Positions 1 to 61,366 of a stretch of DNA of 64,000 nt are shown here, piece after piece. The notes below the pieces were generated by a model that was given only the letters and a program-made list of their open reading frames with translations, was not told the origin of the DNA and searched no databases. Source of the stretch: Geosiphon pyriformis uo1 (taxonomy: Eukaryota; Fungi; Glomeromycota). The translations under genes and the position numbers were made by a program. The stretch's first letter is position 1. Each line of letters begins with the position of its first letter. The DNA is taken from positions 380,246 through 444,245 of the forward strand of contig JAAOMT010000777.1 in assembly GCA_016748015.1 (NCBI GenBank). Reading direction: 5' to 3'.

Positions 1-691
1 TTGTTTGTGGATGGTAGGGCAAAGACAGAGGTCTTTTGACATTGAATCGTTCACAAATTTCTTGTATCAGGTTGTTCACAAAGTGTGTTCCCTGATTGGA
101 TAAAAGTTCAATTGGACATCCATGTCTACAAATGATGTCTTCGTAGATAAAATTTGCTACTGATTTTGCATCTGCTCATTGAATGGCTCTGGCTTCAGGC
201 CATTTAGTAAGATAGTCTACAGCTACTGCAATATAACGGTTTCCTTGAGTGGTGATAGATAATGGTCTGACTAAATCGATACCAACTCTGTCAAAAGGCT
301 GTCCAACTTTGATTGGATTTAAAGATTTTGTAGGGTGAGTTCCTCCTCTTTTTTGACAACTATCACAAGATTTGACATATTCGTGAATGTCTTTTCTCAT
401 TCGAGGCCAAAAGTAGTATTCTAGTGTTCTTTGGGTGGTGCTATCTTTTCCAAAGTGTGCTGATGAAGAATCCGAGTGCATGTTGTATAAAATGGTCTCT
501 TTTTCCTGTTTTTGTATTAATCTGAGTGGTTTGGTTGGGTTTTTGAAATTTCGATGATAGATAATGTTGTTGTGTAGAAAATATTGTTTGGCTTGTTGTT
601 GTAACTGATGTTTTTCGTCTGGGGACCAATCTGTTGGGATTGTTAATGTTTCCAAATATTGTTTGAGATTGTTGTAGTTTTCAGGGTTCAT
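1..691 (-). pseudogene. Integrase of element A (separate ORF, truncated by window edge)
   Basis: HHCC zinc finger (MHSD..AHFG..CDSC) and core GIDLV..YIAVAVDYLTKWPEA; own ATG at 691; premature TGA at 176-178. Confidence 0.92.
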
Positions 692-739
692 TGTTTGTTG
701 TTTTGATGCTGTTAATTCAATTGGGTGTTGGTTTTGTTT

Positions 740-3700
740 CTAATCTTGCCTCATTCTTGAGAGACAATCAACGTTGGTGTGGAATTTTCCTGGTTTGTGG
801 TGTATGATGTATTGGTAATTAGCTAAAAATCCTGTCCATTGGGTTTGTTTTGCATTCAGCTGGGTGTTTTTGTTTTGAAGCCATTTAAGTCCAATATTAT
901 CAGTAATAATATCAAATTCTTTGGGTCTGAGGTAAAGGTTGAAGTGATGTAGGGCCCAGATTACTGCTGCGGTTTCTAATTCTGTTGCGGGGTAGTTCTT
1001 TTCGGCTGGTTTTAATGTTCTACTAGCATAAGCAATTACTCGCTCATTTCCATTGTCATCTAACTGTGATAGGATGTCACCAAAAGCAGTATAAGAAGTG
1101 TTAATTGCTAACTGGAATCGGTTGCTGAAGTCTGGATAGGCAAGAATTGGGGCTGTTATGAGTTTTTTCTTGAGTATCTCGAAGACATTTTGGTGTTCTT
1201 TTGTCCATTTGTATTCGACATTTTTCATAGTGAGCTGGTTAAGGGGTTTTGCAATTTCTGAGAATTCTTTGATGAATTTTCGGTAATAAGATGCTAATCC
1301 AATAAATCCTCTTAATTCTGTGGTATTTTGTGGAGTCTTGAAATTTTTGACAGTACTGATTTTTCCGGGGTCTGGTTTAATTCCATCTTTGCTAACAATG
1401 TGACCAAGAAAAGCTAAACTTGTTTTTCTGAAGTAGCATTTTTCAATGTTCAGTTTTAATCCTGCTTTCCGTAATCGTTGAAAAACTTCTCGTAGGTGAA
1501 TTAAATGTAGCTCAAAAGACAGTGAATAAACATCAGTGTCATCAAGATAAACTACTACTGATTTCCAAAGGAGGCCTTTGTAAACAACATCCATAAGTCT
1601 TTGGAATGTTGCTAGTGCATTGCATAATCCAAAAGGCATTACATTGAACTCGTAATTTCTTTCTTGAGTGGTGAATGCTGTTTTGGGGCAGTCTTTGGAA
1701 TCCATAGCAACTTGCCAGTATCCATTCTCTAAATCTAGTGTTGAAAAGTATTTGGACTTTCCAAGGGCATCCAACATGTCATCAATTCGGGGAAGAGGAT
1801 AGGCATCCCCAATGGTAACACTGTTGAGTTGTCGGTAATTAACACAAAATCGTATCTTTCTATTTTTCTTTTTAACTAGAACCACAGGTGAGGTCCATGG
1901 GCTCATTGATGGTTGAATAAGCCCATTGTTAAGCATCCGTTGTACTTCTTTTCGGATAAATTGATGACTTTCTGGAACAACTCGGTAGGCTTGTTGTTGC
2001 CTGGGTTTGGCATCTCCTGTATAGATTTGGTGTTGAACCAAATCAGTTCTTCCTAAGTTATTGTTGTTTTTGGCGAAGATATCAGCAAATTCTGCAATTA
2101 GTTCTTTGAGCTGGGTTTGTTGTTGTAGTTCAAGTTGTCCCATGTTGATTCGAGATAGTTTTTCCATGACAACATGGTAGTTTTCAGAGCTAGGGTTTGG
2201 GTTGATTTTCAGTAGTGAATGTCCAATAATTTCAGGGAAATCAGGGACTGTTTGGGGTAATTCTTGTTGAAATATTTTACTGTGAATAACTCCAATTTCT
2301 AAATTATTTAATAAAATTATGGGGTAATTATTGGGGTTGTAAAAAGTAACTCGGACTTTCTTTGTTCCTTCTGAAATATAAATGTTTGGGATCAAAATAT
2401 TATGTTCCAAGCAGACTTGTTTATTGGACTCAAAAATTTGTTGTGTGGTTGTTGGCTTTGTACAAGTGTAAATTTCTGGATGTTCTCTAAAGAGTGAGAT
2501 GGTAATCAGTTGTGGAAGTCTGAGAATCTGGTGGGATTCGTTTTGTGTGTTAAGAGCTATATTAACTGGAACTGTGAATCGTCCAGTTGAACCAAAACCT
2601 TGGGTTCCTCTATCGCTTTTTCCTAATTATTCTCTTTGATTGACTAGTTGCAAACCCGAAATGTTGATTAAGGGTAGGTAAATAGCTTGGGCAATTTTTT
2701 CAGCATGTTCGATCTTGAATGGTTTGTCAGTCTCATTTTGAAGCATCACTGTTATGTCTCCAGTATATCCAGTATCGATTATTTCTCCTCTGATATTGAT
2801 TCCTTTGCTTGCCAGAGAGGACCAAGAGGCGATTTGAACCATTGCTTCTGGCGGGATTTTGAGTGCAATTTTGAGGTTGATTTTTGTGAGAGATTTGGGT
2901 TTGAGAACAAGAGTATCTTTGCCTGGATATCTTAAGTCATATCCAGCATCAATTTCGTGTGCTTTTTCAGGTTTTATTCCTTGTCCATTGTTGTTGAAGT
3001 ATTTAAGTTGTAAGGCAGACTGATTTTCGATAAGGTAGATGAGTGTTGTTTCAATTTCTTCCATTTTTTCAGGTTCTCCAAATTCAATTTCATTCTCATT
3101 ATTTTCGCTGGGCAAGGAGATACTAAGAGCATAGCATTCGGGACACCATTGTTCATCGCAAGGCATAATGCATTCTTCACATAGCCTAATGTTCATTTGC
3201 TCTAATCATTGAATTTGAGCTTCTTGGGTTGGGTAGGTGTGATTTGCAATTTGGTGATAGACTTCTACTTCATCTTTGTAATCAAATCCAGCTAATTCCA
3301 TAGTGTATTCAATGTATTCTGCTTTCTTCATTTGACAAACATCTTCTTTGGTAGCTCCATTAATTAATGCCATTGCTAAGTCGAAAATCATCTTGGCGTC
3401 ATAAGGGTAGTGATAAAGTTTGTTGAGAGCACTGTTGTATGCTGCATTAAAGGGTGTTCCTCTTTTTACTTTTTCTGAAATTGATAAGGCATATTGGCAG
3501 GTCTGATCGCAGATGCCTCCTCTCATTGCTACATCAATCCAATTGCATTCTTCCAGTAGCATATCTCCACAAGTCAAACAAGCAGTGTTGTCCCATTTTC
3601 CACTTCTTTTTATTAGGTGGCCTCATCGCTTTCTGTGGCAGGCCTTGCAGTAATAACAAGTATGATTCTCATATTCTTCTTCAGGTGAAATGCAGGCTCC

Positions 3701-6638
3701 CATTGACGATAGTTTCTTGTGGCAGTTCTTACATTTAAGGGGAATATAGGGGCGTTGTTTTCTTGGTTCGGGTTTGGAGTAAGATATATTCCATCCAGAG
3801 GTTTCGGGTTTAGTGTGTGTGGTAAAATGTTCTTGTTCTGTTTCATCGGCCCAGTTAAACGTTGATCCAAGAGCCATGAATGTTTCGATTATTGGTTTTT
3901 CTTCTTCTGGTTCAAATTCAAAAGCTGGGGCTTTTTCAGAGCATTTGTTGAATGTACCACAAATTGCAGGTACTCGGGCATGTTGTCCTTGGTAGGAGAT
4001 TGTTAACTCTTGTGTTTCCCAATTCAGATTAGCATTGGCTTTTTGAAGCCAATCATTTCTGACAAGAGCTTGGTACTGGGGTGCGTCCATTACAAGAACT
4101 TTGACTGAAATGGTGATTCCATCAAGAGTGAACAGAAANNNNNNNNNNNNNNNNNNNNATGTTTCGATTATTGGTTTTTCTTCTTCTGGTTCAAATTCAA
4201 AAGCTGGGGCTTTTTCAGAGCATTTGTTGAATGTACCACAAATTGCAGGTACTCGGGCATGTTGTCCTTGGTAGGAGATTGTTAACTCTTGTGTTTCCCA
4301 ATTCAGATTAGCATTGGCTTTTTGAAGCCAATCATTTCTGACAAGAGCTTGGTACTGGGGTGCGTCCATTACAAGAACTTTGACTGAAATGGTGATTCCA
4401 TCAAGAGTGAATGGAAAATTGTCAATTTCTTCTACTGGTGTCTTTTTCATGCCATCGGCAGTGACGATTACTGTTTGAGCTGGTCGGTCGACATTTCTTT
4501 TCAACTGTTGCATTAACTGGTAGGTAATAATGCTTTCGGTGGATCCACTGTCTAGGATCAAGCAAATTGGCTTTCCTTCTACTTTAGCTTCTGTGTACAT
4601 TGCAGTGATGGCTTTTTGCTCATTAGCCACTGCATTGCTAAGCAAGAATGGTAATTTATTTGCTTCAAATTCAAAAGGAAAGATATCAGAGAGATTGGCG
4701 TTTTCAGCAATTTGGGCTGGTGGAATAGTGGTGTGGTTATGAGAAGGGTTTTGTTGTTGTTGTGCTGCAGCTCTACCTTCTGAGAGTACAGTATGGTGAA
4801 AATCCTGTTCTTCTGACATTGTTAAATAACTAGGTTGAGTATGGTAATGGTTGGGTCTTAATTGAGTGGTATTTTGGGAAACCAATTGGTTGTTCGAACT
4901 GATTCTATTGTTGTTTACTTGGTATTGGTTTTGTGGTGTGAATTGATTTTGTGTAATCAGTCTTCGAGCAGGTACTTGATAATGTTGTGTGGGTGGTTGT
5001 TGGTATTGCTGTTGGATTGGTTGTAGGGCGGGCTGATAATAGTTATTTTGGTACTGGGATCTTGGTAGATAGTAAGCTGGTGGTGATGGTTGATAATAAG
5101 ATTGCTGTGGTGGAGAGTAACATTAATTACCCCTGTTTTGTTAGTCTCGCTGTAGCTTTCTGTAATCTCTTTTCCAGTGGCCAGAGATTCCACAATAATG
5201 GCAATTCTGGGGCTGGTTATTTGAAAGTGGTGCAAAGTTATTTTGATTTCATCTTTGGAGTGGTTGATATCTTTGGGGTTGTTGTTGTTGTTGGTTGGTA
5301 AAATAGTTTTCGACCTTCTTTGTGAGTTGGTCAATTTTTTCCTCAGCTGCTGAGCTGGTTTCTCCAATTGCCAAATTTACAAGTTTTGTATGATTGGCCT
5401 CTTCCATGGCCATTTCGTATCTTTTTGCATGCTGGATGGCAGAGTTTAAATCTTCTGGCGCGTGTGGGCGAACCTTTTTAATTAGTTTATCTTTTAGACC
5501 AGCAATAAATTGATCCAAGATTTGAGCATCGGAATAATAATCATTTGTCTTGAATTGGCGAATCCGTCTGAGAAGTTTGTTGAATTTCTCAATATAAGTC
5601 ATAATGAATTCAGAGGGTTTTTGTTTGATATTTCGAAAACAATTGCAAAGAGTGATAGAGGTATTATTGTTGGTGAACTGTTCAAGGAAGGCTGCTTTGA
5701 AAGCATTTCAATCATTGAATGGAGCGGCAAGGTTTTCAAACCATTCTTCTGCTGTGTCTTTGAGAAAGTAGGGAATTGTTCTTAACATTCTGGCAGCATT
5801 CCATCCATTTGCATCTTCAGCTTTAGTAACTTGGTCGAGCCATTCTTGGGGACTGGTCTCAATATCTTTTCTATTAAATTCAGGGATTTTTGCGATGTAT
5901 GTTGTCATTTCGTTTTCTTTGTTTTTACTGTCTATTGATTCTTTTTTGGTTATTTTAGAGTTGTTTTTTTTGTTTGCTGCTGTCTCAGAGTGTTCACTTT
6001 GATTTTCAGCTAGAAAATCAAGGAGATTGGAACTAGTTTGAAGGGGTTCTTGTTGTCTGGTGGGACTTCTGAGTGATGTAAAATCTTCTGGTCTTGCAAA
6101 TCGATTCAAGGATGAATTAGGTGTGTGCTTGTACAAGTAAGGCTGGAAAAGGTGTGATAGTAAGTAGAAGTTTTGAACTGGTTCTTTGTTCAGGTGTTTG
6201 TAAATGTTTAGCAGTTGTTTTCGGTAGTGTTGGAGTATTTGGGGTGGTTTTTGAATATTGCTTTAATTTGTTTTTGCCTTTGTTGCTTGTTTCTGTTTCT
6301 GATTTAAAATCAATAGTGTATTGAGACTGCACTGGATATGTTTCTTCACAGTATTTGATAATGTTATAATTAAGTTTGTGAAAGTAAGTGGCAAGTGTTT
6401 CACTATTAAGGTCTTCAGTTCCCAACTGTAAATAGTGTGCTAAATTATTGTAAAGGTTGCTTTTAACTTCTGAGATATTGTAATTTCCAAAAAGATAATT
6501 ATTGATGCAATTTTCAATGTATTGGTATACTGATTTCTTGACAACTTCAATTCCGTCTGGAATGTTGAATCTTTGCTTGCAGTGGGTGTAAATTGATTGG
6601 TAATATTCTAGAGTAGTTGCGTCTGGTGTGGTCACCAC
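740..6638 (-). pseudogene. Gag-PR-Cys-rich-dUTPase-RT-RNaseH polyprotein of element A
   Basis: ORF-track pieces 6136, 5602, 4885, 3577, 3196 and 2410 share one frame (one 2-bp deletion near 6125 and an N-gap). Motifs: Gag zinc knuckle CHYCGISGHWKRD(Y), protease LILDSGS, RT VVYLDD, RNase H ERVIAYASRTL..ELE..ITD; ends CLSRMRQD*. Confidence 0.92.
2582..3012 (-). other. dUTPase domain inside element A polyprotein
   Basis: All five trimeric dUTPase motifs: AGYDL, ASWSSLA (mutated RSS), IIDTGYTG, KIAQ, RGTQGFGSTG. Confidence 0.93.
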
Positions 6639-6683: not shown

Positions 6684-7675
6684 TGTTACTGGAGGTTTTT
6701 GGTCTCTTTTCTGTAATGTTGTTGATACTTATTTGCTGCGAATTCACGTTTTCTGAATGTGGTTGAACCTCCAGTAACTGAATTTATTTTCAAATTATCT
6801 CCTATAATTTGAACTTGCTGGGCTTATGAATGGAATGGCCAATTCCGTGCCAGTTGCTTTATGTAGTTACGTTGTAGTAAACGTCAATTCTTTCCCAGGA
6901 ATTGCTTGTCTGAAAGCTCACTAAAAATGTGTAGTTACTTTGCTGTGAAAGTCAACTCTTCTACAGGAATCTTGTCTGTAGGCTACTCTAATGATTATAA
7001 TAAGAAAATAAAGAAAAATAAAAGAAGTGTAACAGAAATAGGATCTTATCAAGGGAAATGTTTTCTATCCAGGCCTGGAGTCACTAACAGTTTACTGAAA
7101 TTGGTAGCTAATCAATTTCGAAATGTTAGTTGGGTTTTGGGGATTTTCCAAGTACAATAATTAAAGAATTTGGTTTTTCAAATTATTTGATATTTATTTC
7201 TTTTTGTGTGTATAAGAACAATTTTTAAGAGATAAATCTAAGGTAAGATACATTTTCTCGAAAAGAGAAGCTCTTTTTTTATACAACTTGTTGTAACACT
7301 ATTCTATGAACTTGAACTTTGCTATTTTCTACAATTTTGCTGAACTAAAGATACATTTTGGCGAACTACAAGTTATTTTGGCGAACTATTAGATATTTTG
7401 GTGAACTATCAATTATTTCTACAAATTTCTACAAATTTCGGCGAACTTCTGAATGTTACATAGTTTGGGGTATTGCATGATTGATCATCACAATTAGGTT
7501 ACATTTGTGTTGTGTACAATTTGAGTTATTAATTAAATGATAATTTTGGACATTTTTTTTTTTTTTTTTTCTAATGTAATAAGTGATCATTTGGAACGAT
7601 AATATATGCTAATTAATGATAGGAATTATAAGATAATTTCATGCTAAATAATATCTCTAATTTTGTCTGGTAACA
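6684..7675 (-). repeat. LTR shared by A (5' LTR) and B (3' LTR)
   Basis: Ends TGTTACTGGA...TCTGGTAACA; aligns to 15547-16515; PBS on one side, PPT on the other; about 21-bp TTTTGGCGAACTA repeats at ~7335-7450 and a TATA-like motif near 7280. Confidence 0.92.
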
Positions 7676-8363
7676 TAATCTTCTCCTCAAAACTGAGCTC
7701 CATTGAAGTCCAAGTACTGTTTGTCATTTCCAGATAATAATCCAAAATTATTGAAGAAATTTGGTCTGAAAATTGTTGAAATTTCAGTTCTGTGAGCTTT
7801 CCAATGTATTGAATCTTCAAAGGTTGAAAAATCGGGTTTTGTAGTATGTTTTTACAGGTGTGAAATAGGTCATAAAGTCTAAGAGCAGCTCTGAGCTTGT
7901 AGTGACTGTTTGTTGGTCCAGCTGTTGTCTTGAATTCGTTGTGGAGTTGTTTCTAAATAGCTTCTTTTGTGAGGTTTGCTGTTGTAAGTTCCAGTTTCCA
8001 TTTGTAGAGTGTTTTTTCAATGTGAAAATATCTATAGATTGGAAGATATTTAGTGTTTTCCTTATTGAGACACAGTTGAAGTCTTTGTTAAATTGTAGCA
8101 TTTGGTGGAATACTAATCAGAGTGAGTATTAGGTTTTCTCTTAAAGCAAGCTTTAAAAGTTCTGGCAGGTGAATTTCAGAATAACTTCTTGTGTTCTTTT
8201 TATATGGGTGATATTTTCATGAATTTGGGGTTAATTTTGGAACTATTTCTGTTTGGATATAATTAATGTGGTTTTCAGTAACAGTAATGAATAATTCGGG
8301 TATTGTTTTTAAAGTTAACATTAGTTTTTGGAATAATTGTTGAATGTTTTGAGGAATAGTCAT
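7644..8363 (-). pseudogene. ORF3 of element B (env-position accessory ORF, unknown function, ~239 aa)
   Basis: Manual translation from ATG 8363: MTIPQNIQQLFQKL...GPTNSHYKLRAALRLYDLFHTCKNILQNP...IGKLTELKFQQFSDQI...; one frame with three stops explicable by C-to-T; homologous to the ORF at 51871-52499. Confidence 0.8.
7676..7692 (-). promoter_or_regulatory. Polypurine tract of element B
   Basis: Minus strand TTTTGAGGAGAAGATTA immediately before the LTR start TGTTACCAG. Confidence 0.7.
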
Positions 8364-8463
8364 TATAAGAGAATAAAAGAAAATTATTTTTGGTGTATGG
8401 GTTTTTATATTATTTTTGTTTTGATTATTTCTAAATTATAAGAGAATAACTAATAAAATTAAA

Positions 8464-9849
8464 TTAAGTGTTCAGGTTGGAAAGTTGTTTAATGACAACT
8501 ATTGGTTCTAAGTTTTGGGGAATATCTTTGGGATTGACTAAAGGGGAATGTATATCAATTTGTGGAATTAATGGTTCAGGATTGTTTCTGAAATGATAGT
8601 GTTTCAAATGATCTCCATGTGCAACTTTTGCTAGAATTTTGTCATCAAGTCTTAGCTTGTATGATCCATTGCCTAAAACTTCATGAATAAAGAATGGTCC
8701 ATCCCATTTATTTTCAAATTTTCTACTCTATTGTTTTTCAGCTTTAGTTCTGTGTAAGAAAACTTTGTGTCCAATTTTAAATTCATTGGTGACTGAAGGC
8801 AATTTGTCATCATGCCGTTCTTTTTGTTGAGCTTGAGAGTGTTCAATATGGGTAACTGCTATTCATTGTTTTCCTTCCAATGTGCTAAGCAGAGTGTAGA
8901 CTCTTCATTGAAGTGTTTCTTGAAAATTGTTTTCATCAATTGGTTGTGCTGGGTATGTTTCTACTGTGAAACTAATTGGTAACATTGCTGTCCTTCTGTA
9001 AGTTAAATTAAATGGTGTGTGTTTTGTGGTATTTTGTTTTAGTGTCCTATATGCTAATAACACTGATAAAATAAAGAGATCCCATTTTTGCTCAAAATCG
9101 GTTGAAACTTTGGCTAATGATTTACACAATGTTCTGTTGAACCATTCTACCAGTCCATTTGTTTGTGGATGGTAGGGTGAAGATAATGGTCTCTTGATAT
9201 TAAATTGTTCACAAATTTCCTGGATTAAATTGTTCACAAAATGTGTTCCTTGATCAGATAAAAGTTCTATTGGACATCTATGTCTACAAATAATGTCTTC
9301 ATAGATGAAGTTTGCTACTGATTTTGCATCTGCCTGTTGAATGGCTCTGGCTTCAGGCCATTTGGTGAGATAGTCTACGGCTACTGCAATGTAGTGGTTT
9401 CCTTGGTTTGTGATAGATAGTGGTCCGACTAAATCAATACCAACTCTGTCAAAAGGCTGTCCAACTTTGATTGGGTTTAAAAGTTCTGTAAGGTGAATTC
9501 CTCCTCTTCTTTGACAACTATCACAAGATTCAACATATTCGTGAATGTTTTTTCTCATTTGAGGCCAAAAATAGTATTCTAGTGTTCTTTGGGTGGTGCT
9601 GTCTTTTTCAAAGTGGGCTGATGAAGGATCTGAGTGCATGTTGTATAATATAGTCTTTTTTTTTTGTTCTTGTATTAATTTGAGTGGTTTGTTTGGGTTT
9701 TTGAAATTTCGGTAATAAATAATGTTGTTGTGTAAAAAATATTGTTTGGCTTGTTGTTGTAGTTGATGTTTTTCATCTGGAGACCAATCTGTTGGGATTG
9801 TTAATGTTTCCAAATATTGTTTGAGTTTGTTGTAGTTTTCTGAATTCAT
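8464..9849 (-). pseudogene. Integrase of element B (separate ORF)
   Basis: HHCC, DDE core (GIDLVGP, SDQGTHF, PQTNGLVE) and GPY/F-type tail KWDGPFFIHEVLGNGSYKL; no chromodomain seen. Confidence 0.93.
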
Positions 9850-9900
9850 TGTTTGTTGGCTCTTTTGGTTGGTTAAGTTAAATGTTGGTTTTTGTGTTTT

Positions 9901-12900
9901 CTAATCTTGTTTTATTCTGGAGAGACAGTCAACATTGGTATGGAGTTTTCCTGGTTTGTGATGTATTATGTATCGATAGTTTGCTAGAAATCCTGTCCAT
10001 CAGGTTTGTTTTGCATTCAACTGAGTATTTTTGTTTTGAAGCCATTTGAGTCCAATATTATCAGTAATAATATCGAATTCTTTAGGCCTGAAATAAAGAT
10101 TGAAGTAGTATAGGGCCCAAATTATGGCTGCTGTTTCTAGTTCTGTGACAGGGTAATTTTTCTCAGCTGGTTTTAATGTTCTGCTAGCATAAGCAATTAC
10201 TTGCTCATTTCCGTTGTCATCTAGTTGTAATAAAATAGCACCAAAGGCAGTATATGAAGCATCTGTAGCTAGTCGAAATTAGTTACTGAAATCCAGGTAG
10301 GCAAGAATTGGAGCTGTTGTCAGTTTTTTCTTGAGAATTTCAAAAGCTTTTTGGTGTTCAGTAGTCCATTTGTATTCCACATTTTTGGTGGTAAGCTGGT
10401 TGAAGGGTTTTGCAATTTCCGAAAATCCTTTGATAAATTTCCGATAGTAGGATGCTAATCTTATGAATCCTCTTAGTTTTGTAGTGTTTCGAGGAGTTTT
10501 GAAGTTTTTGACAATGCTGATTTTTCCAGAATCTGGTTTAATTCTATCTTTACTAATAATATGACTAAGGAAGACCAGGCTTGTTTTTCCAAAGTAGTAT
10601 TTTTCGATATTGAGTTTTAGTCCTGCTTTTTGTAATCATTGAAAAACTTCTCGCAGGTGTTTTAAGTGTAATTCAAATGATGGAGAATAAACATCAGTAT
10701 TGTCAAAATAAATGACTACTAATTTCCAAAGGAGGCCTTTGTAAACAACATCCATGAGTCTTTGGAATGTTGCTAGTGCATTGCATAATCTGAAAGGCAT
10801 TATATTGAACTCGTAATTTCTTCCTTGAGTGGTGAATGCTGTTTTGGGGCAGTCTTTGGGATCCATAGCAATTTGCCAGTATCCATTCTCTAAATCTAGT
10901 ATTGAAAAGTATTTGGATTTTCCAAGGGCATCTAACATGTCATCAATCCGGAGAAGGGGGTAGGTGTCTCCAATTGTAACACTATTGAGTTGTCAATAGT
11001 CAACACAAAATTGGATCTTTCCATTTTTCTTTTTAACTAACACTACAGGTGAAGCCCAAGGACTCATAAAGGGTTGGATAAGTCCATTGTTAAGCATTTA
11101 TTGTACTTCTTCTCAGATGAATTGGTGGCTTTCTGAAGCAACTCGATATGTTTGTTGTCTTCTTGGTTTGGCATCTCCTGTATAAATTTGGTGTTGGACC
11201 AAATTGGTTCTTCCTAAGTCATTGTTGTTTTCAGTAAAGATATTGGCAAATTCTGCAATTAGCTCTTTGAGCTGGGTTTGTTGTTGTGGTTCAAGTTGTC
11301 CCATGTTAATTCGAGATAGTTTTTTCATGACAACATGGTAGTTTTTGGAGCTGGGGTTTGGGTTGATTTTTGGTATTGAATGTCCAATAATTTTAGAGAA
11401 ATCGGGGACTGTTTGGGATAATTCTTGTTAAAATATTTTACTGTGAATAACTCCAATTTCTAAATTATTTAATAAAATTATGAGGTAATTATTGGGGTTG
11501 TAAAAAGTAACTCGGACTTTCTTTGTTCTTTCTGGAATATAAATGTTTGGAATCGAAATATTATGTTCCAAGCAGACTTGTTCATTGGACTCAAAAATTT
11601 GTTGTGTGGTTGTTGGCTTTGGGCAGGTGTAGATTTTTGGATGTTCTCCAAAGGGTGAAATAGTAATTGGTTGTGGAAGTCTAAGAATCTGGTGGGATTT
11701 GTTCCGTGTGTTAAGAGCTATGATAACTGGAACTGTGAATCGTCCAGTTGAACCAAAACCTTGGGTTCTTCTATCGCTTTTTCCTAATTGTTCTCTTTGA
11801 TTGACTAGTTGCAAACCTGAAATGTTGATTAAGGGTAGGTAAATAGCTTGGGCAATTTTTTCAGCATGTTCGATCTTGAATGGTTTGTCAGTTTTATTTT
11901 GAAACATCACTGTAATGTTTCCAGTATATCCAGCATCAATTATTTCTCCTCTGACATTGATTTTTTTGCTTGCCAGAGAGGACTAAGAGGTAATTTGAAT
12001 CATTGCTCCTGGCAGGATTTCGAGTGCAATTTTGAAGTTGATTTTTGTGAGAGATTTGGGTTTGAGAACAAGAGTATCTTTGCCTGGATATTTTAGGTCA
12101 TATCCAGCATCAATTTTGTGTGCTTTTTTGGGTTTTATTCCTTGTCCGTTGTTGTTGAAGTATTTAAGTTGTAAGACAGGCTGATTTTCGATAAGATAGA
12201 TAAGTGTTGTTTTAATTTCTTCCGTTGCTTCAGGTTCTCTAAATTCAATTTCATTCTCATTATTTTCACTGGGCAAGGGGATACTAAGAGTGTAGCATTC
12301 AGGACACCACTGTTCATCGCAAAGCATAATGCATTCTTCACATAGCCTAATGTTCATTTGCTCTAATTATTGAATTTAAGCTTTTTGAGTTGGGTAGGTG
12401 TAACTTGCAATTTGGTGGTAGACTTCTATTTTGTCTTCGTAATCAAATCCAGCTAATTCCATGGTGTATTTAATGTATTCTGCTTCCTTTATTTGGCAAA
12501 CATCTTCTTTGGTAGCTCTATTAATTAATGCCATTGCTAGGTCGAAAATCATCTCAATATTATAGGAGTAGTGATAAAGTTTGTTGAGAACACTGTTGTA
12601 TGCCGCATTAAAGAGTGTTCCTCTTTTTATTTTTTCTGAAATTGATAAAGCATATTGGCAGGTTTGATTGCAGACTCTTCCTTTCATGGCTACATCAATC
12701 TAATTGCATTCTTCTGGTAGCATATCTTCACAAGTTAAACAAGGGGTGTTGTCCTATTTTCTGCTTCTTTTTATTAGATGGCCCCATCATTCTTTGTGGC
12801 AAGCCTTGCAATAATAACAAGTATGATTTTCATATTCTTCTTCAGGTGAAATGCAGGCTCCCATTGACGATAGTTTTTTGTGGCAGTCCTTACATTTAAG

Positions 12901-15501
12901 GGGAATATAAGGGCGTTGTTTTCTTGGTTCAGGTTTTGAGTAAGGGATATTCCATCCAGAGGTTTCGGGTGAGATAAAATGTTCTTGTTCTGTTTCATTG
13001 GCCCAGTTGGACGTTGATCCAAGAGCCATGAATGTTTCAATGAGGGGTTTTTTCTCTTCCAGTTCGAATTCAAAAGCTGGGGCTTTTTCAGAGCATTTGT
13101 TGAATGTACCACAAGTGGCAGGTACTCAGGCATGTTGTCCTTGGTAGGAGATTGTTAACTCTTGTGTTTCTCAATTCAGATTAGCATTGGCTTTTTGAAG
13201 CCAATCATTTCCGACAAGAGCTTGGTACTGAGGTGCATCCATTATAAGAACTTTGACTGAAATGGTGATTCCATCAAGAGTAAATGGAAAATTGTTAATT
13301 TCTTCTACTGGGGTCTTTTTCATGCCATCAGCAGTGACAATTACTGTTTGAGCTGGTCGGTCAACATTTCTCTTCAACTGTTGCATTAACTGGTAGGTGA
13401 TAATGCTTCCAGTGGATCCACTGTTTAGGATCAAGCGAATTGTTTTTTCTTCAACTTCTGTTTTAGTGTACATAGCTGTGATTGCTTTTTGTTCATTGGC
13501 GGCTGCATTGCTAAGTAGAAATGGTAATTCATTGGCTTCGAACTCGAAAAGAAAAATATTAGTGAGATTGGCGTTTTTAGCAATTCAGACTGGTGGAATA
13601 GTGGTGTAATTATGAAAAGGGTTTTGTTGTTGTGCTGCAGCTCTACTTTCCGAGGGTGCAGTATGGTAAAACTCCTGTTCTTCTGGTATTGTTAAATAAC
13701 TGGGTTGAGTGTAGTAGTGGTTGAGTCTTGGTTGAGTGGAATTTCAGGGAACCAATTGGTTGTTCAAACCAATTCTATTGTTGTTTACTTGGTATCAGTT
13801 TTGTGGTATAAGTTGATTTTGTGTAATCAGTTTTCGAGTGGGTACTTGATAATGTTGTGTAGATGGTTGCTGGTATTGCTGTTGGATTGGCTGTGGAGCA
13901 GGCTAATAATAGTTATTTTGGTACTGAGGTCTTGGTGAATAGTAAGCTGGTGGTGATGGTTGATAATAAGATTGCTGTGGTGGAGGGTAACATTAATTAC
14001 TCCTATTTTGTTGGTCTCATTGCAGCTTTCTGCAATCTCTTTTCCAATGGCCAGAGATTCCACAGTAATGGCAATTCTGAGGTTAGTTATTGGAAAGTGG
14101 TGCAAAGTTATTTTAATGTCGTCTTTGGGGTGGTTGATATCTTTGGAGTTGCTGTTGTTGTTGATTGGTGAAATAGTTTTTAATCTTCTTTGTGAGTTGG
14201 TCAATTTTTTTCTCAGCTGCTAAGCTGGTTTCTCCAATTGCCAAATTTACAAGTTTGGTACGATTGGCCTCTTTTATGGCCATTTTGTATCTTTTCGCAT
14301 ACTGGATGGCAGAGTTTAAATCTTCTGGTGCGTGTGGGTAAACCTTTTAAATTAGTTTATCTTTTAGACCAGCAATAAATTGATCCAAGATTTGAGCATC
14401 AGAATAATAATTGTTTGTTTTGAGTTGGCAAATTTGTCTGAAAAGTTTGTTGAATTTCCCAATATAAGTCATAACAGATTCAGAGAGTTCTTGTTTGATA
14501 TTTCAAAAATGATTGTGAAGGGTGATAGAGGTATTATTGTCAGTGAACTGTTCAAGGAAGGCTGCTTTAAAGGCATTCCAATTATTGAATAGGGTGGCCA
14601 GATTTTCAAACCATTCTCCTGCCATTCCTTTGAGAAAGTATGAAATTGTTCTTAACATTCTGGCAGCATTCCATCCATTTGTATCTTCAGCTTTAATAAC
14701 TTGGTTGAGCCATTCTTGGGGACTGGTCTCAATGTCTTCTCCATTAAATTCAGGGATTTTTGCAATGTATGTTGTCATTTTGTCTTCTTCGTTTTTACTG
14801 TCTATTGATTCTTCTTCAGATATTTCAAGTTCGTTTTCTTCGTTCGCTGCTGTCTCAGAATGTTCACTTTGATTTTCAGCTAGAAAGTCAAGGAGATTGG
14901 AACTAGTTTGAAGGGGTTTTTGTTGTCTGGTGAGACTTCTGAGTGATGTAAAATTTTCTGGTCTTGCAAATCAATTCAAGGGTGAATTAGATGTTTGTGC
15001 TTGTGCAAGTGAAGCTGGAAAAGGTGTGATAGTAAGTGAAAGTTTTAAACTGGTTCCTTGTTCAGGTGTTTGTAAATGTTTGAATAATATTTTAGGAGTA
15101 TTGGGTGTTGTATGAACAGATTGGTTATCTCTTTGTCTTTTGTTGCTACTGGTTTCAGGTTCAGATTCGAGTTCAAAGACAAATTGTGCATTTGCAGGAT
15201 ATTTTTCTTCACAGAATCAAATGATATTATAATCGAGTTCCTCAAAATAAGTAGCACAAGCTTCAGCACTAATGTTTTCTGCTTTAGTGTTGGAATAGTG
15301 TAATATGTTCTCAAGAAGATTTCTTTTAACTGTTGTAATGTTATAGTTTCCAAAGAGGTAGTTGTTAATTCGATTTTTGATGTATTGAAAAAGTGTTTTC
15401 TTGAAAGCTATGATTCCATCGCGTATTTCAAATCGTTGTTTACAGTGTGTGTAAATCAATTGATAGTACTCTAGGGTTATGATGTCCGAGGTGGTTGCCA
15501 C
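9901..15501 (-). pseudogene. Gag-PR-Cys-rich-dUTPase-RT-RNaseH polyprotein of element B
   Basis: ORF-track fragments starting 15501, 14778, 13473, 13029, 12687, 12357, 11910, 11328 and 10938 are all in one frame, broken by point-mutation stops; ends CLSRIKQD* at 9901. Confidence 0.92.
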
Positions 15502-15546
15502 TTTGAATTTGTTGTTGCTGTGTTGTTTCCGTGGGAGAGCACCAAA

Positions 15547-16515
15547 TGTTACCAGAAGTTTTTGGTCTCTTCTTAGTTCTTGTATGTTTGTTGTAATGCT
15601 GTTAATTTACAATTTATGGGAAGTGTTTAAACCTCCGATAACTGAATTTATCTTCAAATTATCTTCTATACTTTGAACTGCAGGACTTATAAGTGGAATG
15701 GCCAATTCCTCACCAGTTACTTTATGTAGTTACATTGTAGTAAATGTCAACTCTTTCTCAGGAATTGCTCATCTGAAAGCTCACTAAAATGTGTAGTTAT
15801 TTTGCTGTGAAAGTCAACTCTTCTACAGGAATCTTGTTTGTAGGCTACCCTAATAATTATGATAATAAAAGAAAATAAAATAAAAGAAAAGGAAAGAAAA
15901 AAAAGAAATGAGGAATTGATTTGTTAAAGTCGTTTTGGATCCAGGCCTGGAAGTGCTTTAACAGTCTACTGAAATTGGTAGCTAATCAATTTCAAACTGT
16001 TAGTTGGGTTTTGGGGATTTTTCAAGTGTAATAATTAAAGAATTTGGTTTTTCAAATTATTTGATATTTATTTCTTTTGTGTGTGTAAAAATGGTTTTAA
16101 GTGATAAATCTAGAGTAAGATACATTTTCTCAAAAAAAAAAGCTCTTCTTTTATACAACTTGTCGTAACACTATTCTATGAACTTGAACTTTGCTATTTT
16201 CTACAATTTCACTGAACTAAAGATACATTTCGGTGAACTATTAGATTTTTCGGTGAACTATCAATTATTTCGGCAAATTTTTACAAATTTTGGTGAACTT
16301 TTTGAATGTTACATAGTTCAGGGTATTGCATGATTGATCATCACAATTAGGTTACATTTGTGTTGTATACAAATTGGGTTATTAATTAAATGATAATTTC
16401 AGATATTTTGCTAATGTAATAAGTGATAATTTGAAATGATAATATATGCTAATTAATGATAGGAATTATAAGATAATTTCATGCTAAATAATATCTCTAA
16501 TTTCATCTGGTAACA
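15547..16515 (-). repeat. 5' LTR of element B
   Basis: Perfect 10-bp terminal inverted repeat TGTTACCAGA...TCTGGTAACA; PBS TTTGGTGCTCTCCCAC at 15531-15546. Confidence 0.93.
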
Positions 16516-19875: not shown

Positions 19876-20418
19876 TTTTTTTTAAATATTAAAACTATTA
19901 TAATAATATTATTATTATAATTTTTAAAACCAATTTTAATAAAAATAATTTTTACAAATTTTTAAGTTAAAATTATAAAAATTTATTTAATAAATAATAT
20001 AATAATTTTTAATTTTTAATTTATATTTTTAAATTGTTGTAATTTTGTTATAATTTAAATTAATTTAATAAATATTTGTTTAAAAAAATTAAGATATTTG
20101 TTAATAATTTTATTAAAAATTTAAATTTATTTATAATTATTATAAATATATTATATTATTTTTATATTTAAAAATGTAATATAAATATTAAAATTTATAA
20201 TATTATGTTATTTATTTTAGTATATTTTGATAATAAGTAATAATATTATTTATATAAATAATCAAATATTATTAAATATTTAAAAAATAAAATTTGACTT
20301 GTTTAAACCTAATTTTTTAAAATAAATATCAAATTAAAAAATAGTATATTTAAAATTTAATTAGTAAAAAAAAAATTAATGTTAAATAAGTTTTTTATTT
20401 ATTGTTATTATTAATACA

Positions 20419-51595: not shown

Positions 51596-51870
51596 TGTTA
51601 CGGGATGGTTTTCTTGTTATATTTAATTGCTGATATCCCGCTTTAATTGCAATCAGTCTTTCGTGAGTTCCTCAATTCTATTTGTGTGATAATGTCACTG
51701 TTATACTGAAGGCTTTCTTTTTACTGTTGTGATGNNNNNNNNNNNNNNNNNNNNNNNNNNNNNNNNNNNNNNNNNNNNNNNNNNNNNNNNNNNNNNNNNN
51801 NNNNNNNNNNNNNNNNNNNNNNNNNNNNNNNNNNNNNNNNNNNNNNNNNNNNNNNNNNNNNNNNNNNNNN

Positions 51871-52499
51871 TCATTAAATTCTAAGTTACTATAGTGGTTC
51901 AATACTGTGTTATTAATTTGTTGTTGTAATTCTTGAAATTGCGAGTTGGTAAGTCGTCCAATACTGTTGGTTGTTATTATGTTCATGGTTGGATCCAACA
52001 ATAATTTGTGACAGTTTTCAAATGCTTTGAAAATTCTGTAAACTGTTTTTGAATGGAATGTAGTGTTGGTTTTTCCAATGAAAGGTTTTAATAGTTGGAT
52101 AGTTGTTTTGTCAAACACTCTAGTTGAGTTTTTTGAGTATAATGTTTGTATGTTCAAGTGCTTTCCTAGTTGATAATAACAGTAATTAATTGGAAATTTC
52201 GTTTTCAAGTTGCTAAATGTGTCTGGTGTTAATTCACTTATTTCTATTTCTTCCATTATTAATGTATTGCCCAATGCTATTTCTAATTTTTCAATAACTT
52301 TGCTAATAAATTTGTTGTTATATTTGGCAATATTATATGGTTCGAAATTATGTTCTTTTCTTGTTTTTGGATTTTCTATTGTTCTTTTTATGTATGTTAT
52401 TTTGGAGCTATTAACTGTGATTTCTAGATCGGATTTTAATTGTTGTAAGCTTTCAACTAATTGTTGAGTTATATTGTTGATGTTTTCTGAAATAAGTAT
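51871..52499 (-). pseudogene. ORF3 of element C (env position)
   Basis: Open frame ILISENINNITQQL...IGRLTNSQFQELQQQINNTVLNHY up to the N-gap; start ATA probably a G-to-A mutated ATG; aligns with ORF3 of B. Confidence 0.78.
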
Positions 52500-52586
52500 T
52501 ATTGTTTTAATTTTGACTGTTATTTTGGAATCTTTTGCATGCGTTTTTATGGTTGTTAAATCATTTTTGCTGTGATCTAAGATTAA

Positions 52587-53715
52587 TTATCTTTTCGAAT
52601 AATGTTCAATTAAAACTATTGGTTCTAAATCTCGTGGAATTTGTTCTGGTAGAATTAAAGGTAATTGTGTTCCAATTCTGGGTGTTTTTGTTGTTATTAC
52701 TGGTTTACTGTAATAGAATTTCAGCCGGTTACCATGTGCTGCTTTTCTTAATATTTTATCATCTAGTCTTAGCTTGTATGCTCCATTTCCAAGTATTTCG
52801 TGAATATAAAATGGTCCATCCCACTTGTGATCAAATTTTCCACTCCACTGTTTTTCCATTTTNNNNNNNNNNNNNNNNNNNNGTGAATTGTGTAGTATCT
52901 TGTTTTACTGTTCTATATGCTAGTAGTACTGCTGGTATGAACAAATCTTATTCTTTTTCATGTTCGTTACTAATTTTCACCAGTGATTCACATAATGTGT
53001 GATTAAATCTTTCAACTAATCTATTTGTTTGAGGGTGGTATGGTGATGACAGTGGTCACTTGATTCCAAATTTTTGGCTAAGTTCTTTTAAGGTGCTGTT
53101 TACGAAGTGTGTGCCTTGATCTGATAGCAATTCTTGTGGACATCTATGTCAGCAAATTAAGTCTTCATGTATGAATTGAGCTACAGAAATAATATCAGCT
53201 GTTTTAATAGCTCTAGCTTTTGGCCATTTGGTGAGATAGTCTATGGCTACTGCAATATAATAGTTGTTTCTTGTTGTTATTGGTAAGGGTCCAACTAAAT
53301 CAATTCCGATTCTGTTAAATAACTGTCCAACTTTTATTGGTCTTAATAATTCCGTTGTTTTTGCTCCTCCTCTTCGTTGGCATGGGTCACAATTTCTTAT
53401 GTATTGGATTATGTCTGAACTCATTTTTGGCCAATAGTAACGGCTAGTTGCATGTTGGATGGTTGCTGTTTTTCCAAAGTGGCCTGAATAAATATCTGAG
53501 TGCATGTTAAATAAGATAGTTTCTTTTTCATCCGTGGTTATAACTCTTAATGGATTATCTGGATTTTGTTGATTCTGGTAATAAAGTATGTGATTTTGGA
53601 TGAAATAGTGTTTTGCTAATTTTTGGAGCTTAATTAGCTCTTTTACTGGCATTTCTTCATCTATTTGTAGTGTTTCCAAGTATTGGCTGAGGTTTTTGTA
53701 AATGTAGTTGTTCAT
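52587..53715 (-). pseudogene. Integrase of element C (separate ORF; partly duplicated at 54126-55126)
   Basis: ATG 53715 MNNYIYKNL; HHCC, GIDLVGP, KWDGPFYIHEILGNGAYKL. Confidence 0.88.
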
Positions 53716-53744
53716 TGTTGTTGTGGTGGGTGGATTGGTGATTT

Positions 53745-56700
53745 TTATGTGTGTCTCATTCTTGACAAACAGTTGGCATTAGCATTTTTGGTACCTTCTT
53801 TGTATTTGATAATATAATCATATGGTACTAACATTTGTGACCATCTGGCGTATTTTCTTTTTAGCGCTTTCTTGTTATTTAACCAGACCAGACCTCTATG
53901 ATCTGTCATAATCTCAAAGGGTTGGTACCGTAAATATGTGTCAAAGTGAACACAACTCCAGACTACTGCTAAGCATTCAAGTTCATGTGCTGCGTAGTTT
54001 TGTTCTGCCGTACTGAGACTTCTGCTGGCATAAGCGATTACACGTTCTCTTCCATTATCATTTTTTTGTGACAGAATGGCTCCAAGTCCAGTTCCAGAGG
54101 CATCTNNNNNNNNNNNNNNNNNNNNATACTTTATCTCCAATTTTGTAGCTAATTATATTATCTGGTAACTGGTTATCATGTCTCACTTTTTGTTGTTCTT
54201 GTGATTGTTCAATATTTTGTGCTGCTTTTCTTCTTTTGTTTTCTAAAGTTCCCATTAATTCGTATGTTCTTCTAAGTAGTGTTTCCTGGAATGTTGCTTC
54301 CATGATAGTGTCACTTGGATAAGTTGGGATAGTAAGTTCAACGGGTAATGTGGCTTTTCTTCCATAAACTAGTTCAAACGATGTGAATTGTGTAGTATCT
54401 TGTTTTACTGTTCTATATGCTAGTAGTACTGCTGGTATGAACAAATCTTATTCTTTTTCATGTTCGTTACTAATTTTCACCAGTGATTCACATAATGTGT
54501 GATTAAATCTTTCAACTAATCTATTTGTTTGAGGGTGGTATGGTGATGACAGTGGTCACTTGATTCCAAATTTTTGGCTAAGTTCTTTTAAGGTGCTGTT
54601 TACGAAGTGTGTGCCTTGATCTGATAGCAATTCTTGTGGACATCTATGTCAGCAAATTAAGTCTTCATGTACGAATTGAGCTACAGAAATAGCATCAGCT
54701 GTTTTAATAGCTCTAGCTTCTGGCCATTTGGTGAGATAGTCCATGGCTACTGCAATATAATGGTTGTTTCTTGTTGTTATTGGTAAGGGTCCAACTAAAT
54801 CAATTCCGATTCTGTCAAATGACTGTCCAACTTTTATTGGTCTTAATAATTCCGTTGTTTTTGCTCCTCCTTTTCGTTGGCATGGGTCACAATTTCTTAT
54901 GTATTGGATTATGTCTGAGCTCATTTTTGGCCAATAGTAACGGCTAGTTGCATGTTGGATGGTTGCTGTTTTTCCAAAGTGGCCTGAATGAATATCTGAG
55001 TGCATGTTAAATAAGATAGTTTCTTTTTCATCCGTGGTTATAACTCTTAATGGATTATCTGGATTTTGTTGATTCTGGTAATAAAGTATGTGATTTTGGA
55101 TGAAGTAGTGTTTTGCTAATTTTTGGNNNNNNNNNNNNNNNNNNNNAGTGAACACAACTCCAGACTACTGCTAAGCATTCAAGTTCATGTGCTGCGTAGT
55201 TTTGTTCTGCCGTACTGAGACTTCTGCTGGCATAAGCGATTACACGTTCTCTTCCATTATCATTTTTTTGTGACAGAATGGCTCCAAGTCCAGTTCCAGA
55301 GGCATCTGTGGCCAAAATGAATTTCTTGTTGAAATTCAGATAGATCATTATTGGTGATTCAATGAGCTTTTGTCTAAGGTACTCAAAAGCTTTTTGTTGT
55401 GCTTCAGTCCATTCAAACTTCACATTTTTAGATAGTAGGTAATTAAGGAGTTTGGCGANNNNNNNNNNNNNNNNNNNNAAAAACTTGTTGTAAATGTTGG
55501 AGATGATCTGTGAATTTTGACGAGAAAACATTTGTATCATCCAAGTAGACAACAACGGATTGCCACAGGATTCCAGAGTAAATTACATCTATTAGTCTTT
55601 GGAATGTCATGGGAGCATTTGTTAATCCAAATGGCATTACATTGAACTCATAATTGCTATTTTGTGTTGTGAATGCTGTTTTATGCCTGTCCTTTGGGTC
55701 CATTTCCACTTGCCAGTACCCACTGGTCAAGTCCAGTGTAGAAAACCATTTTGCTCCTCCAAAAACGTCGAAAATTTTGTCAATTAACAGTATTGGGTAT
55801 GAGTCTTTGGTTGTTTTCCTGTTTAGTTTGCGATAGTCAACGCAAAATCTAATTTTTCCGTTCTTTTTCTTTACTAAAACAACTGGTGAGGACCATGGAC
55901 TCATTGATGGTTGTATTATTCCTTTTTCCAACATGCTTTGGACTTCTTCTCTGATAAAATTATGCTCCATTGGTGGGACACAGTAAGTGCATTGTTTTTC
56001 AGGTCTGGCGTCTCCAGTAGAGATTTGGTGTTAAACCAAGTTGGTTCTTCCAAATTTGCCATTTCTTGAAAATATATCAGAGTATTTTAAAATTAATGCT
56101 TTTAATTGTTGCTGTTGGTCAGGATCCATTGTTCCAATGTTTAATTTGGCCAATTCTTCTGGCGTAAATTGATAGCATTCTACCGGTTGTTGCCAATTTA
56201 TTGAAGTGAGTTCACAGTAGAGGGTGATTTCTGGGAAATTTAGAATTTCTTGTGGTGTTAACGCGTTTTCTAGCTCCGTTCCGAGGTATCCAATGATGGT
56301 ATCTTCCGGAATGTAGACAGGTTCTTCTGTGGTGTTTGCAATAGGAATTTTTATCTATTGAGCTTTATCAGCTGGAATAAAAAGATTAGTAAGTCTTATG
56401 AGAAACTGTTGGCAAGTTTCTGGGTAGGACTCAAATATTAGGTCTTTTTCTTTAATTGTCCTTTTTATTCTTATTTCTGATTTTCCATATGGTAGGAGCA
56501 TAATGGACTACTCATTTTTAATTACTTCACCTTTTTCCTCTATTATTTCAGCGAAATTCACTTCAATTCCTTTTCCTGTTGATCTGAAACCAAAAGTTCC
56601 TCTCATTGTTTGTAACAATTCCTCACGATTTTCCACTGGCACAAATTTCCCAATTTTTACCAATGGTAGGAAAATTGTTTGTGCAATCTTTTCCTTAGAT

Positions 56701-59700: not shown

Positions 59701-60449
59701 GACTGGCTGCTTGTTTCAGTGACTGGTTTTGTGATTGTTTTTTCACTGGTCTCTTTTTCGGATTCCGATTCAGACTTCTCTTCATGGTTTTCAAATCCCG
59801 TTCTAAATTTTGGCTGAAAAAGAGGGTTTTGGAATAGTGATGAATATCCTCCTGTAATTGGTATGTCTCCCCAGTTACGTTGTTTAATTTTATCAATATA
59901 ACTAGGAGTTTTTGGCATTTGTGAAGTTGATGTTGATGATGATGCAGCTCCTAATGGAATTTGTATCTTATTTTCTGGTGAAAAATGGTATGATTTATCT
60001 TCTAGTGAATAAATACATTGTTTCTTTATTGATTGAGTGACAGTTTTCTTTGGCGTTTGAGCTGGTGTTCCTAGTTTTTGCTGGTTACTTTCCTGATTAG
60101 TTTCTAAATTTTTTTTGGTTTTGTTGGCGCATTCCCTAGTGTTTTCTGTGGATATTGGAAAATTTTCGTTGGCGTATTGCTCAATTTCTCGATGGATTTT
60201 GACAATAGTTGCGGCTATTACTGCTACTTCTTTTGTAGTGTATTGTGATAATTCTCTATACAATCCAAGTTTTGCATCGTGTGGTTCTTCTTCCTTTCCT
60301 ATATGATAATTTATTCTGGTGTTGATATAATAAGTGAGGGCAGATTCTGCTGAACAACACCCTTCTGGTAATCCAAGATCACTTTGATTTTGTGTGTAAA
60401 TAGCACAGCAGAATTCAAGAACAGTAAGATTAGGGGTTTTTGTCGCCAC
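53745..60449 (-). pseudogene. Gag-PR-Cys-rich-dUTPase-RT-RNaseH polyprotein of element C
   Basis: Fragments 60449, 59045, 58592, 57728, 56747 and 55970 share one frame; CHFCKHVEHLISQC knuckle; dUTPase ~56575-56995; VVYLDD; ends CLSRMRHT*. Segment 54100-55480 is scrambled by gaps. Confidence 0.88.
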
Positions 60450-60531
60450 TTTTGTCTTTTCCTTTTTAGCAATGAATTATTGCTAATTATTATTTCCTTT
60501 TTGATTTTCTTTCCTCGTAAGATTCACCAAA

Positions 60532-61366
60532 TGTTACGGGATGATTTTCTTGTTATATTTAATTGCTGATATCCCGCTTTAATTGCAATCAGTCTTTTGT
60601 GAGTTCCTCAATTCTATTTGTGTAATAATGTCACTGTTACACTGAAGGCTTTCTTTTTACTGTTGTGATGTAAGTTATTCTTTAATTCTTGATTGTTGTG
60701 TGTGTTTATGTACTCCTTCTCAGAGGCTGAACTGAAATCTACCCACTGNNNNNNNNNNNNNNNNNNNNTCTAGAAACACAGAATGTTAATGGTCTTTAGC
60801 ACTTTTCTAATTCTCACAATAAAGCTTTTATCAATTAGTAACAACATGAATAATCTTGATCAAGAATTATTCTTCCAAGGGATTCAGTTGATGAATGATA
60901 GTTTCATTCAATAAATAATACAAGTAAGTTTCTTAATACTTTGGGTTGTGATAGTTCCGTTTTAAATATTCTTTTTCATTTCTTTTTGATTTTTAAAGGT
61001 TTTTTGAGATATTTAATTTGAAAGTATGATTTAAAGTGGAGTTTGTTGGATAAAATTGGATCTGTTGCTTGATAAGTTATGATTTTTATTACTTGATTGA
61101 TTATTTCCCAATATTAAAACTATTGTATATATACATGTTTGTAGTTCTATGAGAAAATACTTTCTTTTTGATATTTCAACCTGGTGTTTGCTGCTATCAC
61201 CAGTTGGTGTTGGCTGCTATTGTGAACTGGTGCTTGCCACTATCGCAAGATGGTGTTTACTACTATGTTAATCATTACCTTTCTAAGATTATTACTGTGC
61301 TATATTATGATTGAATAGTTTGTATTATTTTTATGATTCTTTTTGCTAAATTCTTAAACTGTAACA
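60532..61366 (-). repeat. 5' LTR of element C
   Basis: Matches 51596-51734 (3' LTR, cut by gap); TGTTAC...GTAACA ends. Confidence 0.9.

Follow-up and report, generated by a model that had tools for sequence, protein, structure and literature searches.

Three long terminal repeat (LTR) elements resembling Ty3/Gypsy, here called A, B and C, lie in the 64,000-nucleotide stretch of Geosiphon pyriformis uo1 DNA that was analyzed (the window; contig JAAOMT010000777.1 of assembly GCA_016748015.1, positions 380,246 to 444,245), and all three place integrase outside Pol, in a stand-alone open reading frame (ORF) behind the stop codon that follows RNase H; in B and C a third reading frame, ORF3, follows the integrase. 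Comparison with homologous loci supports the view that selection maintains both the stop before a stand-alone integrase and the third ORF across a large set of elements. Integrase and ORF3 may be translated from the same RNA as Pol by ribosomes that stop and restart, a reading to which we assign a probability of roughly one half. The principal features are as follows.

16515-6684, minus strand: element B, a Ty3/Gypsy-type LTR element
9901..15501, minus strand: ORF1 of B, encoding Gag, protease, CxxC domain, dUTPase, reverse transcriptase (RT) and RNase H; 1866 codons, likely GTG start
9850..9903, minus strand: conserved stop codon and 51-nucleotide (nt), A/C-rich, AUG-free spacer
8464..9849, minus strand: stand-alone integrase ORF of B (zinc domain, core and SH3), with internal stops
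7644..8363, minus strand: ORF3 of B, a divergent member of a helical protein family, extending across the polypurine tract into the LTR
about 52499-51871, minus strand: ORF3 of C

The integrase begins with ATG at 9849 in B, 691 in A and 53715 in C, after stop-to-ATG spacers of 51, 48 and 29 nt, respectively; the B integrase ends at a stop (8466-8464), and that of C lies in a different frame from its ORF1. Pfam matches and comparison of A, B and C bear out the initial annotation, made from the sequence alone, in the layout that it gave to all three (Gag, protease, CxxC domain, dUTPase, RT and RNase H up to a stop, with an integrase behind it that begins at its own ATG, and ORF3 in B and C). Among 360 contigs of run X1 that cover the junction, neither the stop nor the ATG of B has an alternative letter amounting to 8% of depth, and six nearby positions do vary; this run may be the source sample, and its result covers B's family, not other organisms. 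No chromodomain family was matched in the scanned part of the integrase of B or of C (the final 34 codons of B lay outside the scan), and none is listed for 120 integrase homologues.

A protein search with the integrase returned 1189 matches among 2812 candidates of 234-748 amino acids, a range that leaves fused forms longer than 748 amino acids outside. The best 120 homologues are 392-453 amino acids long; 119 start with Met, and 94 with Met followed by Asp or Glu. Since this search is blind to fused forms, DNA was surveyed at 82 loci, designated by L numbers: two viral loci and, of 533 confirmed loci from metagenomes, the best 80. An upstream RNase H match was absent from 47 of these; the remaining 35 comprise 13 fused loci, 18 split loci and four that had been flagged as split and were relabelled as decayed fused copies (stops in RT-RNase H or integrase, no homologous Met). 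All 15 loci with a visible RNase H and integrase identity of at least 38.9% are split, three further split loci are more distant, and every fused locus lies at an identity of 36.8% or less. Split junctions occur in all three frames and with all three stop codons, and 13 of the 18 split loci have no stop within the matched RT-RNase H and integrase stretches. Named members of the stand-alone integrase clusters belong to Rhizophagus, Entrophospora and Paraglomus; most loci carry no host label.

It is scarcely credible that the split arose when an ordinary Pol with fused integrase decayed or was mis-assembled, with ORF3 incidental to it. This explanation can draw on the window copies, which are full of C-to-T stops (C is also mis-assembled), on the four distant loci with stops at the junction that were judged to be decayed, and on the blindness of the homologue search to fused forms above 748 amino acids. 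Intact relatives, however, hold the same junction with spacer length and frame varying, the stop and the ATG are invariant across family copies in run X1, 119 of 120 proteins have Met at the corresponding position, and the ORF3 family comprises 382 clusters at 50% identity. Since the 15 closest loci in which RNase H can be seen are all split, and the three frames are all represented among them, the split is evidently not decay. The earlier proposal that the layout is selected thus holds for the stop before integrase and for ORF3, and more widely than had been claimed. A long acidic extension with a Cys/His motif and without a Pfam family follows RNase H (L005:3497-4438, L016:4945-6702, L002, L010, L030 and L031) and occupies the place where a fused integrase would be. 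L012, a complete element with terminal repeats 100% identical, carries, between its integrase and ORF3, an additional ORF for a coiled coil (L012:7404-8255) and thus holds four or five ORFs in one element.

The ORF3 proteins of B and C are 26% identical (E 2e-13), and all 10 of the 10 proteins matching C ORF3 are labelled Geosiphon pyriformis. Relatives carry an ORF of 120-230 amino acids after integrase, ending near the polypurine tract. ORF3 was found after integrase at 12 of 16 close loci (only those with at least 600 nt downstream were counted) and at none of 31 distant loci, three of which are split; the 12 positive loci were part of the search profile, and when the profile is built instead from 120 other representatives, all 12 are recovered together with a further one. 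Diversispora is among the named hosts of the family. The ORF3s of B and C rank first of 1062 six-frame pieces of the window against the ORF3 profile (E 0.001-0.003) and match the family by profile-profile comparison (E 2.4e-5), and an intact Geosiphon copy matches over the full family profile (E 5e-5). L004, L005 and L019 continue from ORF3 into a second gag, as in the tandem A-B pair.

Among 18 ORF3s there is no membrane segment (top 19-residue hydropathy 0.34-1.34, 0-4 Cys), the isoelectric point exceeds 8 in 12, and Tyr, Gly and Arg positions are conserved, several Arg and Tyr residues being invariant. The model of the L004 protein is confident and all-helical (pLDDT 92.7). The family is soluble and helical, and it is confined to split loci. 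An Env glycoprotein is ruled out by the absent membrane segment and the all-helical model, so that the term retrovirus-like, used in the initial annotation, does not suit these elements. ORF3 has no Pfam family, no convincing PHROG match and no PDB sequence match; Foldseek found no match to the model in PDB or among viral models, and the best VIA score (Z 5.0 over 69-81 residues) is background. The top ESM Atlas matches (closterovirus coat, 0.94; phage RegA-like, 0.92) share just 139-150 features, are unsupported by the fold searches and were rejected. Most likely, as we infer more weakly, ORF3 would act as a nucleic-acid-binding helper for integrase packaging or integration. Five Rhizophagus irregularis gene models join integrase and ORF3; a fusion protein was discounted, as another record of that family ends at this very residue and the two are connected differently in a sixth model, and the joins are probably predicted introns.

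Translation by stopping and restarting would proceed as follows: after finishing Pol, some ribosomes would resume at the following AUG, either overlapping the stop or separated from it by a spacer free of AUGs, and the same step would be repeated for ORF3. Integrase output would then follow Pol output. Free integrase would presumably have to enter the particle without a Gag tether, a more weakly grounded step, and ORF3 may assist that entry or integration. Analysis covered 20 junctions, namely the 18 split loci together with L002 and L010, whose RNase H lies beyond the contig. Stop and start overlap or nearly touch at five of the 20 (-11, -8, -1, +2 and +5 nt), and the integrase start carries G at +4 in 16 junctions and, also in 16, a purine at -3. 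The 14 RNase H-integrase spacers of 29-190 nt, including those of A, B and C, contain one AUG where 12.1 are expected (none of 5000 shuffles was as low); the 11 integrase-ORF3 spacers, counted without two overlapping junctions and L012, contain two where 8.6 are expected (P 0.006). One shared readthrough or frameshift is excluded as a route, since the junctions use each of the three frames and each of the three stop codons.

Several observations weigh against restarting. Four long spacers (278-727 nt) carry 30 AUGs, with only the final 60-151 nt of each free of them; these spacers were excluded from the shuffle test after inspection, and the total with them is 31 AUGs against 42 expected. Such spacers suit an internal promoter or splice better, and AUG-free leaders are predicted by a subgenomic mRNA too. 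Ribosomes seldom restart efficiently after an ORF of 5.6 kb unless a dedicated signal helps them, and A, B and C offer only a short A/C-rich spacer. The evidence for ORF3 function is position and conserved residues, and ORF3 is absent from four of the 16 close loci and from the three distant split loci; it is therefore not essential to the split. Somewhat less likely than restarting, though quite possible, is that integrase, with or without ORF3, comes from a separate subgenomic RNA, either transcribed from a promoter inside the element or spliced from the 5' LTR, in the manner in which foamy viruses make Pol. Strong start contexts and the AUG-free final 60-151 nt of long spacers otherwise rich in upstream AUGs would fit this, and spliced ORF3 messages are described as typical of LTR elements in the available part of PMC5408684. 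There is, however, no consistent acceptor (YAG is absent from the spacer in nine of 17 loci with positive spacers, and also in A and C), the stop/start overlaps are not predicted, and two successive AUG-poor junctions would require two RNAs or a second trick. Improbable as a general explanation is direct recruitment of ribosomes (internal entry) by structured RNA that lies just ahead of the integrase AUG and acts without Pol translation. In 10 loci a hairpin of 6 bp with invariant loop letters does stand 6-18 nt 5' of the integrase ATG, pairing in 98% of cells, with five of its six pairs changing on both sides; being absent from A, B, C and the remaining split loci it cannot be the general route, and it may equally assist restart or act as a packaging signal. 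The hairpin, which has no Rfam match, is found at L002:597-619 and L005:4475-4497 and in L006, L007, L010, L018, L028, L030, L031 and L032.

ORF1 of B runs from GTG at 15501 to TAG at 9903-9901, its 1866 codons being counted with 27 internal stops read as X, and encodes the following domains.

15154..15501, minus strand: N-terminal helical domain, conserved among the three elements, that precedes the first in-frame ATG; no Pfam match
14272..14781, minus strand: capsid domain, residues 241-410 (Pfam PF19259, PF03732)
14026..14076, minus strand: CCHC zinc knuckle, residues 476-492 (Pfam)
13144..13500, minus strand: aspartic protease, residues 668-786 (Pfam)
12260..12927, minus strand: multi-CxxC domain, family not assigned, limits approximate
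11743..12132, minus strand: dUTPase domain, residues 1124-1253 (Pfam)
10558..11037, minus strand: RT core, residues 1489-1648 (Pfam)
9976..10368, minus strand: RNase H, residues 1712-1842 (Pfam)

According to Pfam, A and C encode the same ORF1 domains. The protease catalytic Asp is present in A and lost in B and C, and the RT motif YLDD is intact in A and C and altered in B. The initial annotation described a single frame of about 1870 codons in B; its length stands, and 25 of the 27 internal stops are sense codons in A, but the TAA at 13995 is present in both A and B (C is open across the corresponding region) and is a caveat on the single-frame reading. Position 12369 is a stop in both A and B, with a different stop codon in each, and the terminal TAG is common to A and B. 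The first in-frame ATG is codon 242 in B and codon 178 in C; ORF1 of A, B and C apparently begins at GTG (6638, 15501 and 60449), in each case in the context AAAGTGG, and the conserved coding domain that precedes the first ATG suggests long and short forms of Gag. A single Gag-Pol frame is not general, since several relatives hold Gag and Pol in separate frames. An in-frame TGA-CTA, the usual readthrough context, lies between protease and RT in L001:870, L016:3358 and L025:1585; L025 has a second in-frame TGA past the zinc knuckle, and L008, L012 and L022 have a frame change in place of the TGA. A different N-terminal Gag domain with CxxC and a W/F motif, not found in the window's elements, occurs at L004:3157, L005:6801, L016:460, L012:460 and L002:3000, and the Gag N-terminus of L022:1-1500 consists of many Cys-rich repeats without a Pfam match.

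Other domains are local to Geosiphon. The CxxC domains of B and C are 38% identical (E 1e-47), and the N-terminal helical domain is 58% identical between A and B and 23% between B and C. These two domains and dUTPase show protein-level conservation between B and C with an excess of third-position changes, which indicates that they were functional in the Geosiphon branch. None of the three matched any of the 82 loci, including the seven split loci that cover protease to RT; dUTPase and the CxxC domain are thus local additions of this branch, and the initial suggestion that the whole layout defines a lineage fails on this point and on the separate Gag and Pol frames. The group appears to be defined by the split integrase and ORF3, not by the full dUTPase/CxxC layout. 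The Geosiphon branch gained a dUTPase, which would limit uracil in cDNA, as well as a domain that probably binds zinc and an N-terminal extension started by GUG. ESM Atlas matches to the CxxC domain are all below 0.9, and its model, built from three sequences, has a pLDDT of 47.5. A degenerate second dUTPase after the first gave no significant profile match (E 0.097). The best solved-structure matches of the dUTPase at window positions 2222-2989 are 1f7d, 1duc and 1dut, which we take to be lentiviral; they lie only about 5 bits above other dUTPases, so the origin of the domain cannot be read from them.

The limits of the three elements and their remaining landmarks are these.

15547..16515, minus strand: 5' LTR of B, ends TG...CA, inside a LINE-like (long interspersed nuclear element) element
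6684..7675, minus strand: LTR serving as 3' LTR of B and 5' LTR of A
15533..15544, minus strand: sequence of B resembling a primer binding site (PBS)
7679..7688, minus strand: polypurine tract of B
1..6638, minus strand: internal part of A, truncated by the window edge
6638, 742-740 and 691, minus strand: GTG, RNase H stop and integrase ATG of A
about 51596..60768, minus strand: element C, a second family, partly mis-assembled
60449, 53747-53745 and 53715-52587, minus strand: GTG, stop and integrase of C, with ORF3 up to a gap at 51870

The LTRs of B (16515-15547 and 7675-6684) are 90% identical. The PBS-like sequence is identical in A and B and differs in C; that of B matched no tRNA, and no target-site duplication was found. 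Of 828 nucleotide differences between A and B, 664 are transitions, and CpG is depleted. All three elements are decayed, with no intact copy among them: A carries a frameshift and an assembly duplication, and C carries assembly duplications flanking gaps. The near-identical duplications beside 20-N gaps (52883-55478 and 3880-4417) are probably scaffolding artefacts. The window also contains two decayed LINE-like elements, 70% alike: one at 16516-19877, interrupted by the 5' LTR of B, and one at 29279-36007, with RT and RNase H. A host cation/H+ antiporter gene lies on the plus strand (42214-45085). LTR elements account for 41% of the genome of G. pyriformis, a member of the Glomeromycotina, according to the accessible portion of PMC11952901.

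Paired LTRs with TG...CA ends, a PBS, a polypurine tract, a Gag with capsid and CCHC domains, and the order protease-RT-RNase H-integrase (Pfam) are hallmarks that these elements share with canonical Ty3/Gypsy members such as Ty3, Tj1 and DGLT-A. In those, integrase is within Pol; here, a stop and then an ATG precede it in A, B, C and 18 loci, and a conserved ORF3 follows. With integrase outside the Pol polyprotein, the elements are a variant that works like Ty3/Gypsy and not a canonical member. The C-terminal integrase chromodomain of chromoviruses was absent from the stretches scanned. Ginger/GIN DNA transposons likewise have a Gypsy-type integrase as a stand-alone ORF, but they are marked by terminal inverted repeats and no RT, whereas the elements here are retrotransposons, with LTRs, Gag, and RT-RNase H directly upstream.

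Trees, made of unnamed loci only, differ in how they place the split elements. With a mixture model, the RT-RNase H tree groups 15 of 16 split rows (support 80/83), with L043 apart; with LG+G4 they are ungrouped, and the approximately unbiased (AU) test does not reject a single clade (p 0.45). The integrase tree, built from 37 of 47 rows after removal of ten near-relatives, unites the split rows and five fused plant-type rows in one group at 95/90 with no inner order, and a single clade of split elements is not rejected there either (AU p 0.23). The five rows, which we take from motifs to be of Athila type (Athila/Tat), share a helical N-terminal extension with the split integrases, but their integrase is fused to RNase H and none has ORF3, and the elements here are without an extra RNase H. 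On a grouping with Athila/Tat, the integrase tree places the two together and the RT-RNase H trees disagree by model. A broader proposal, rather unlikely as a whole, is that there is one undescribed lineage across arbuscular-mycorrhizal fungi, with polycistronic stop-restart expression of Pol, integrase and ORF3, an ORF3 of new fold acting in trans (in integrase packaging or, as TAV does, as a restart switch), and an integrase that is sister to or source of the plant Athila-type integrase.

Stopping and restarting is known from calicivirus TURBS (termination upstream ribosomal binding site), the UAAUG of hypoviruses and victoriviruses, ORF2 of LINE-1 and SART1, and caulimovirus TAV. In these systems the downstream AUG overlaps or adjoins the upstream stop, and L012 shows a UAAUG overlap; restart here is proposed from sequence, would part integrase from Pol, and would span spacers of up to 727 nt. 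No description of a separate integrase ORF was found in the full-text literature; subscription journals, Repbase, GyDB, REXdb, Dfam and supplements lay outside the search and may hold one. In the available parts of PMC5911963 and PMC2582038, separate ORFs in Ty3/Gypsy elements mark a boundary between gag and pol and not one between RNase H and integrase, and separate ORFs are likewise gag/pol, env or extra RNase H in those of PMC2864245, PMC6431247, 10.1101/2021.03.30.436303, PMC5408684, PMC10508981, PMC7947760, PMC11952901, PMC4427930, PMC5911963, PMC2582038 and PMC2774666. A dUTPase between protease and RT, the same place as here, is described in accessible sections for PosPlaTy3-5 (Postia), Tmt1 (Tuber), Burro (planarians) and Juno/Vesta/TelKA (bdelloids) (PMC2864245, PMC6431247, PMC5408684), with no separate integrase described there; among the elements studied here dUTPase is confined to the Geosiphon branch. 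Bdelloid ORF3s, unlike those here, are Env, GDSL, DEDDy or membrane proteins in the part available of PMC5408684.

Integrase is normally cut from Gag-Pol, which both fixes how much of it there is and brings it into the particle; a large group in nature without this link must solve dose and packaging otherwise, and the intact natural copies L012 and L016 make both questions testable. Stopping and restarting, the likely route here, is not expected for LTR retrotransposons, and the group may offer many independent examples of coupled translation on eukaryotic nucleus-encoded RNA. It also provides a new family of accessory proteins, confidently modelled and unmatched in fold, and a candidate intermediate for integrase swapping between elements. 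In mycorrhizal genomes, the stand-alone ORFs are mis-annotated as transposases or host genes.

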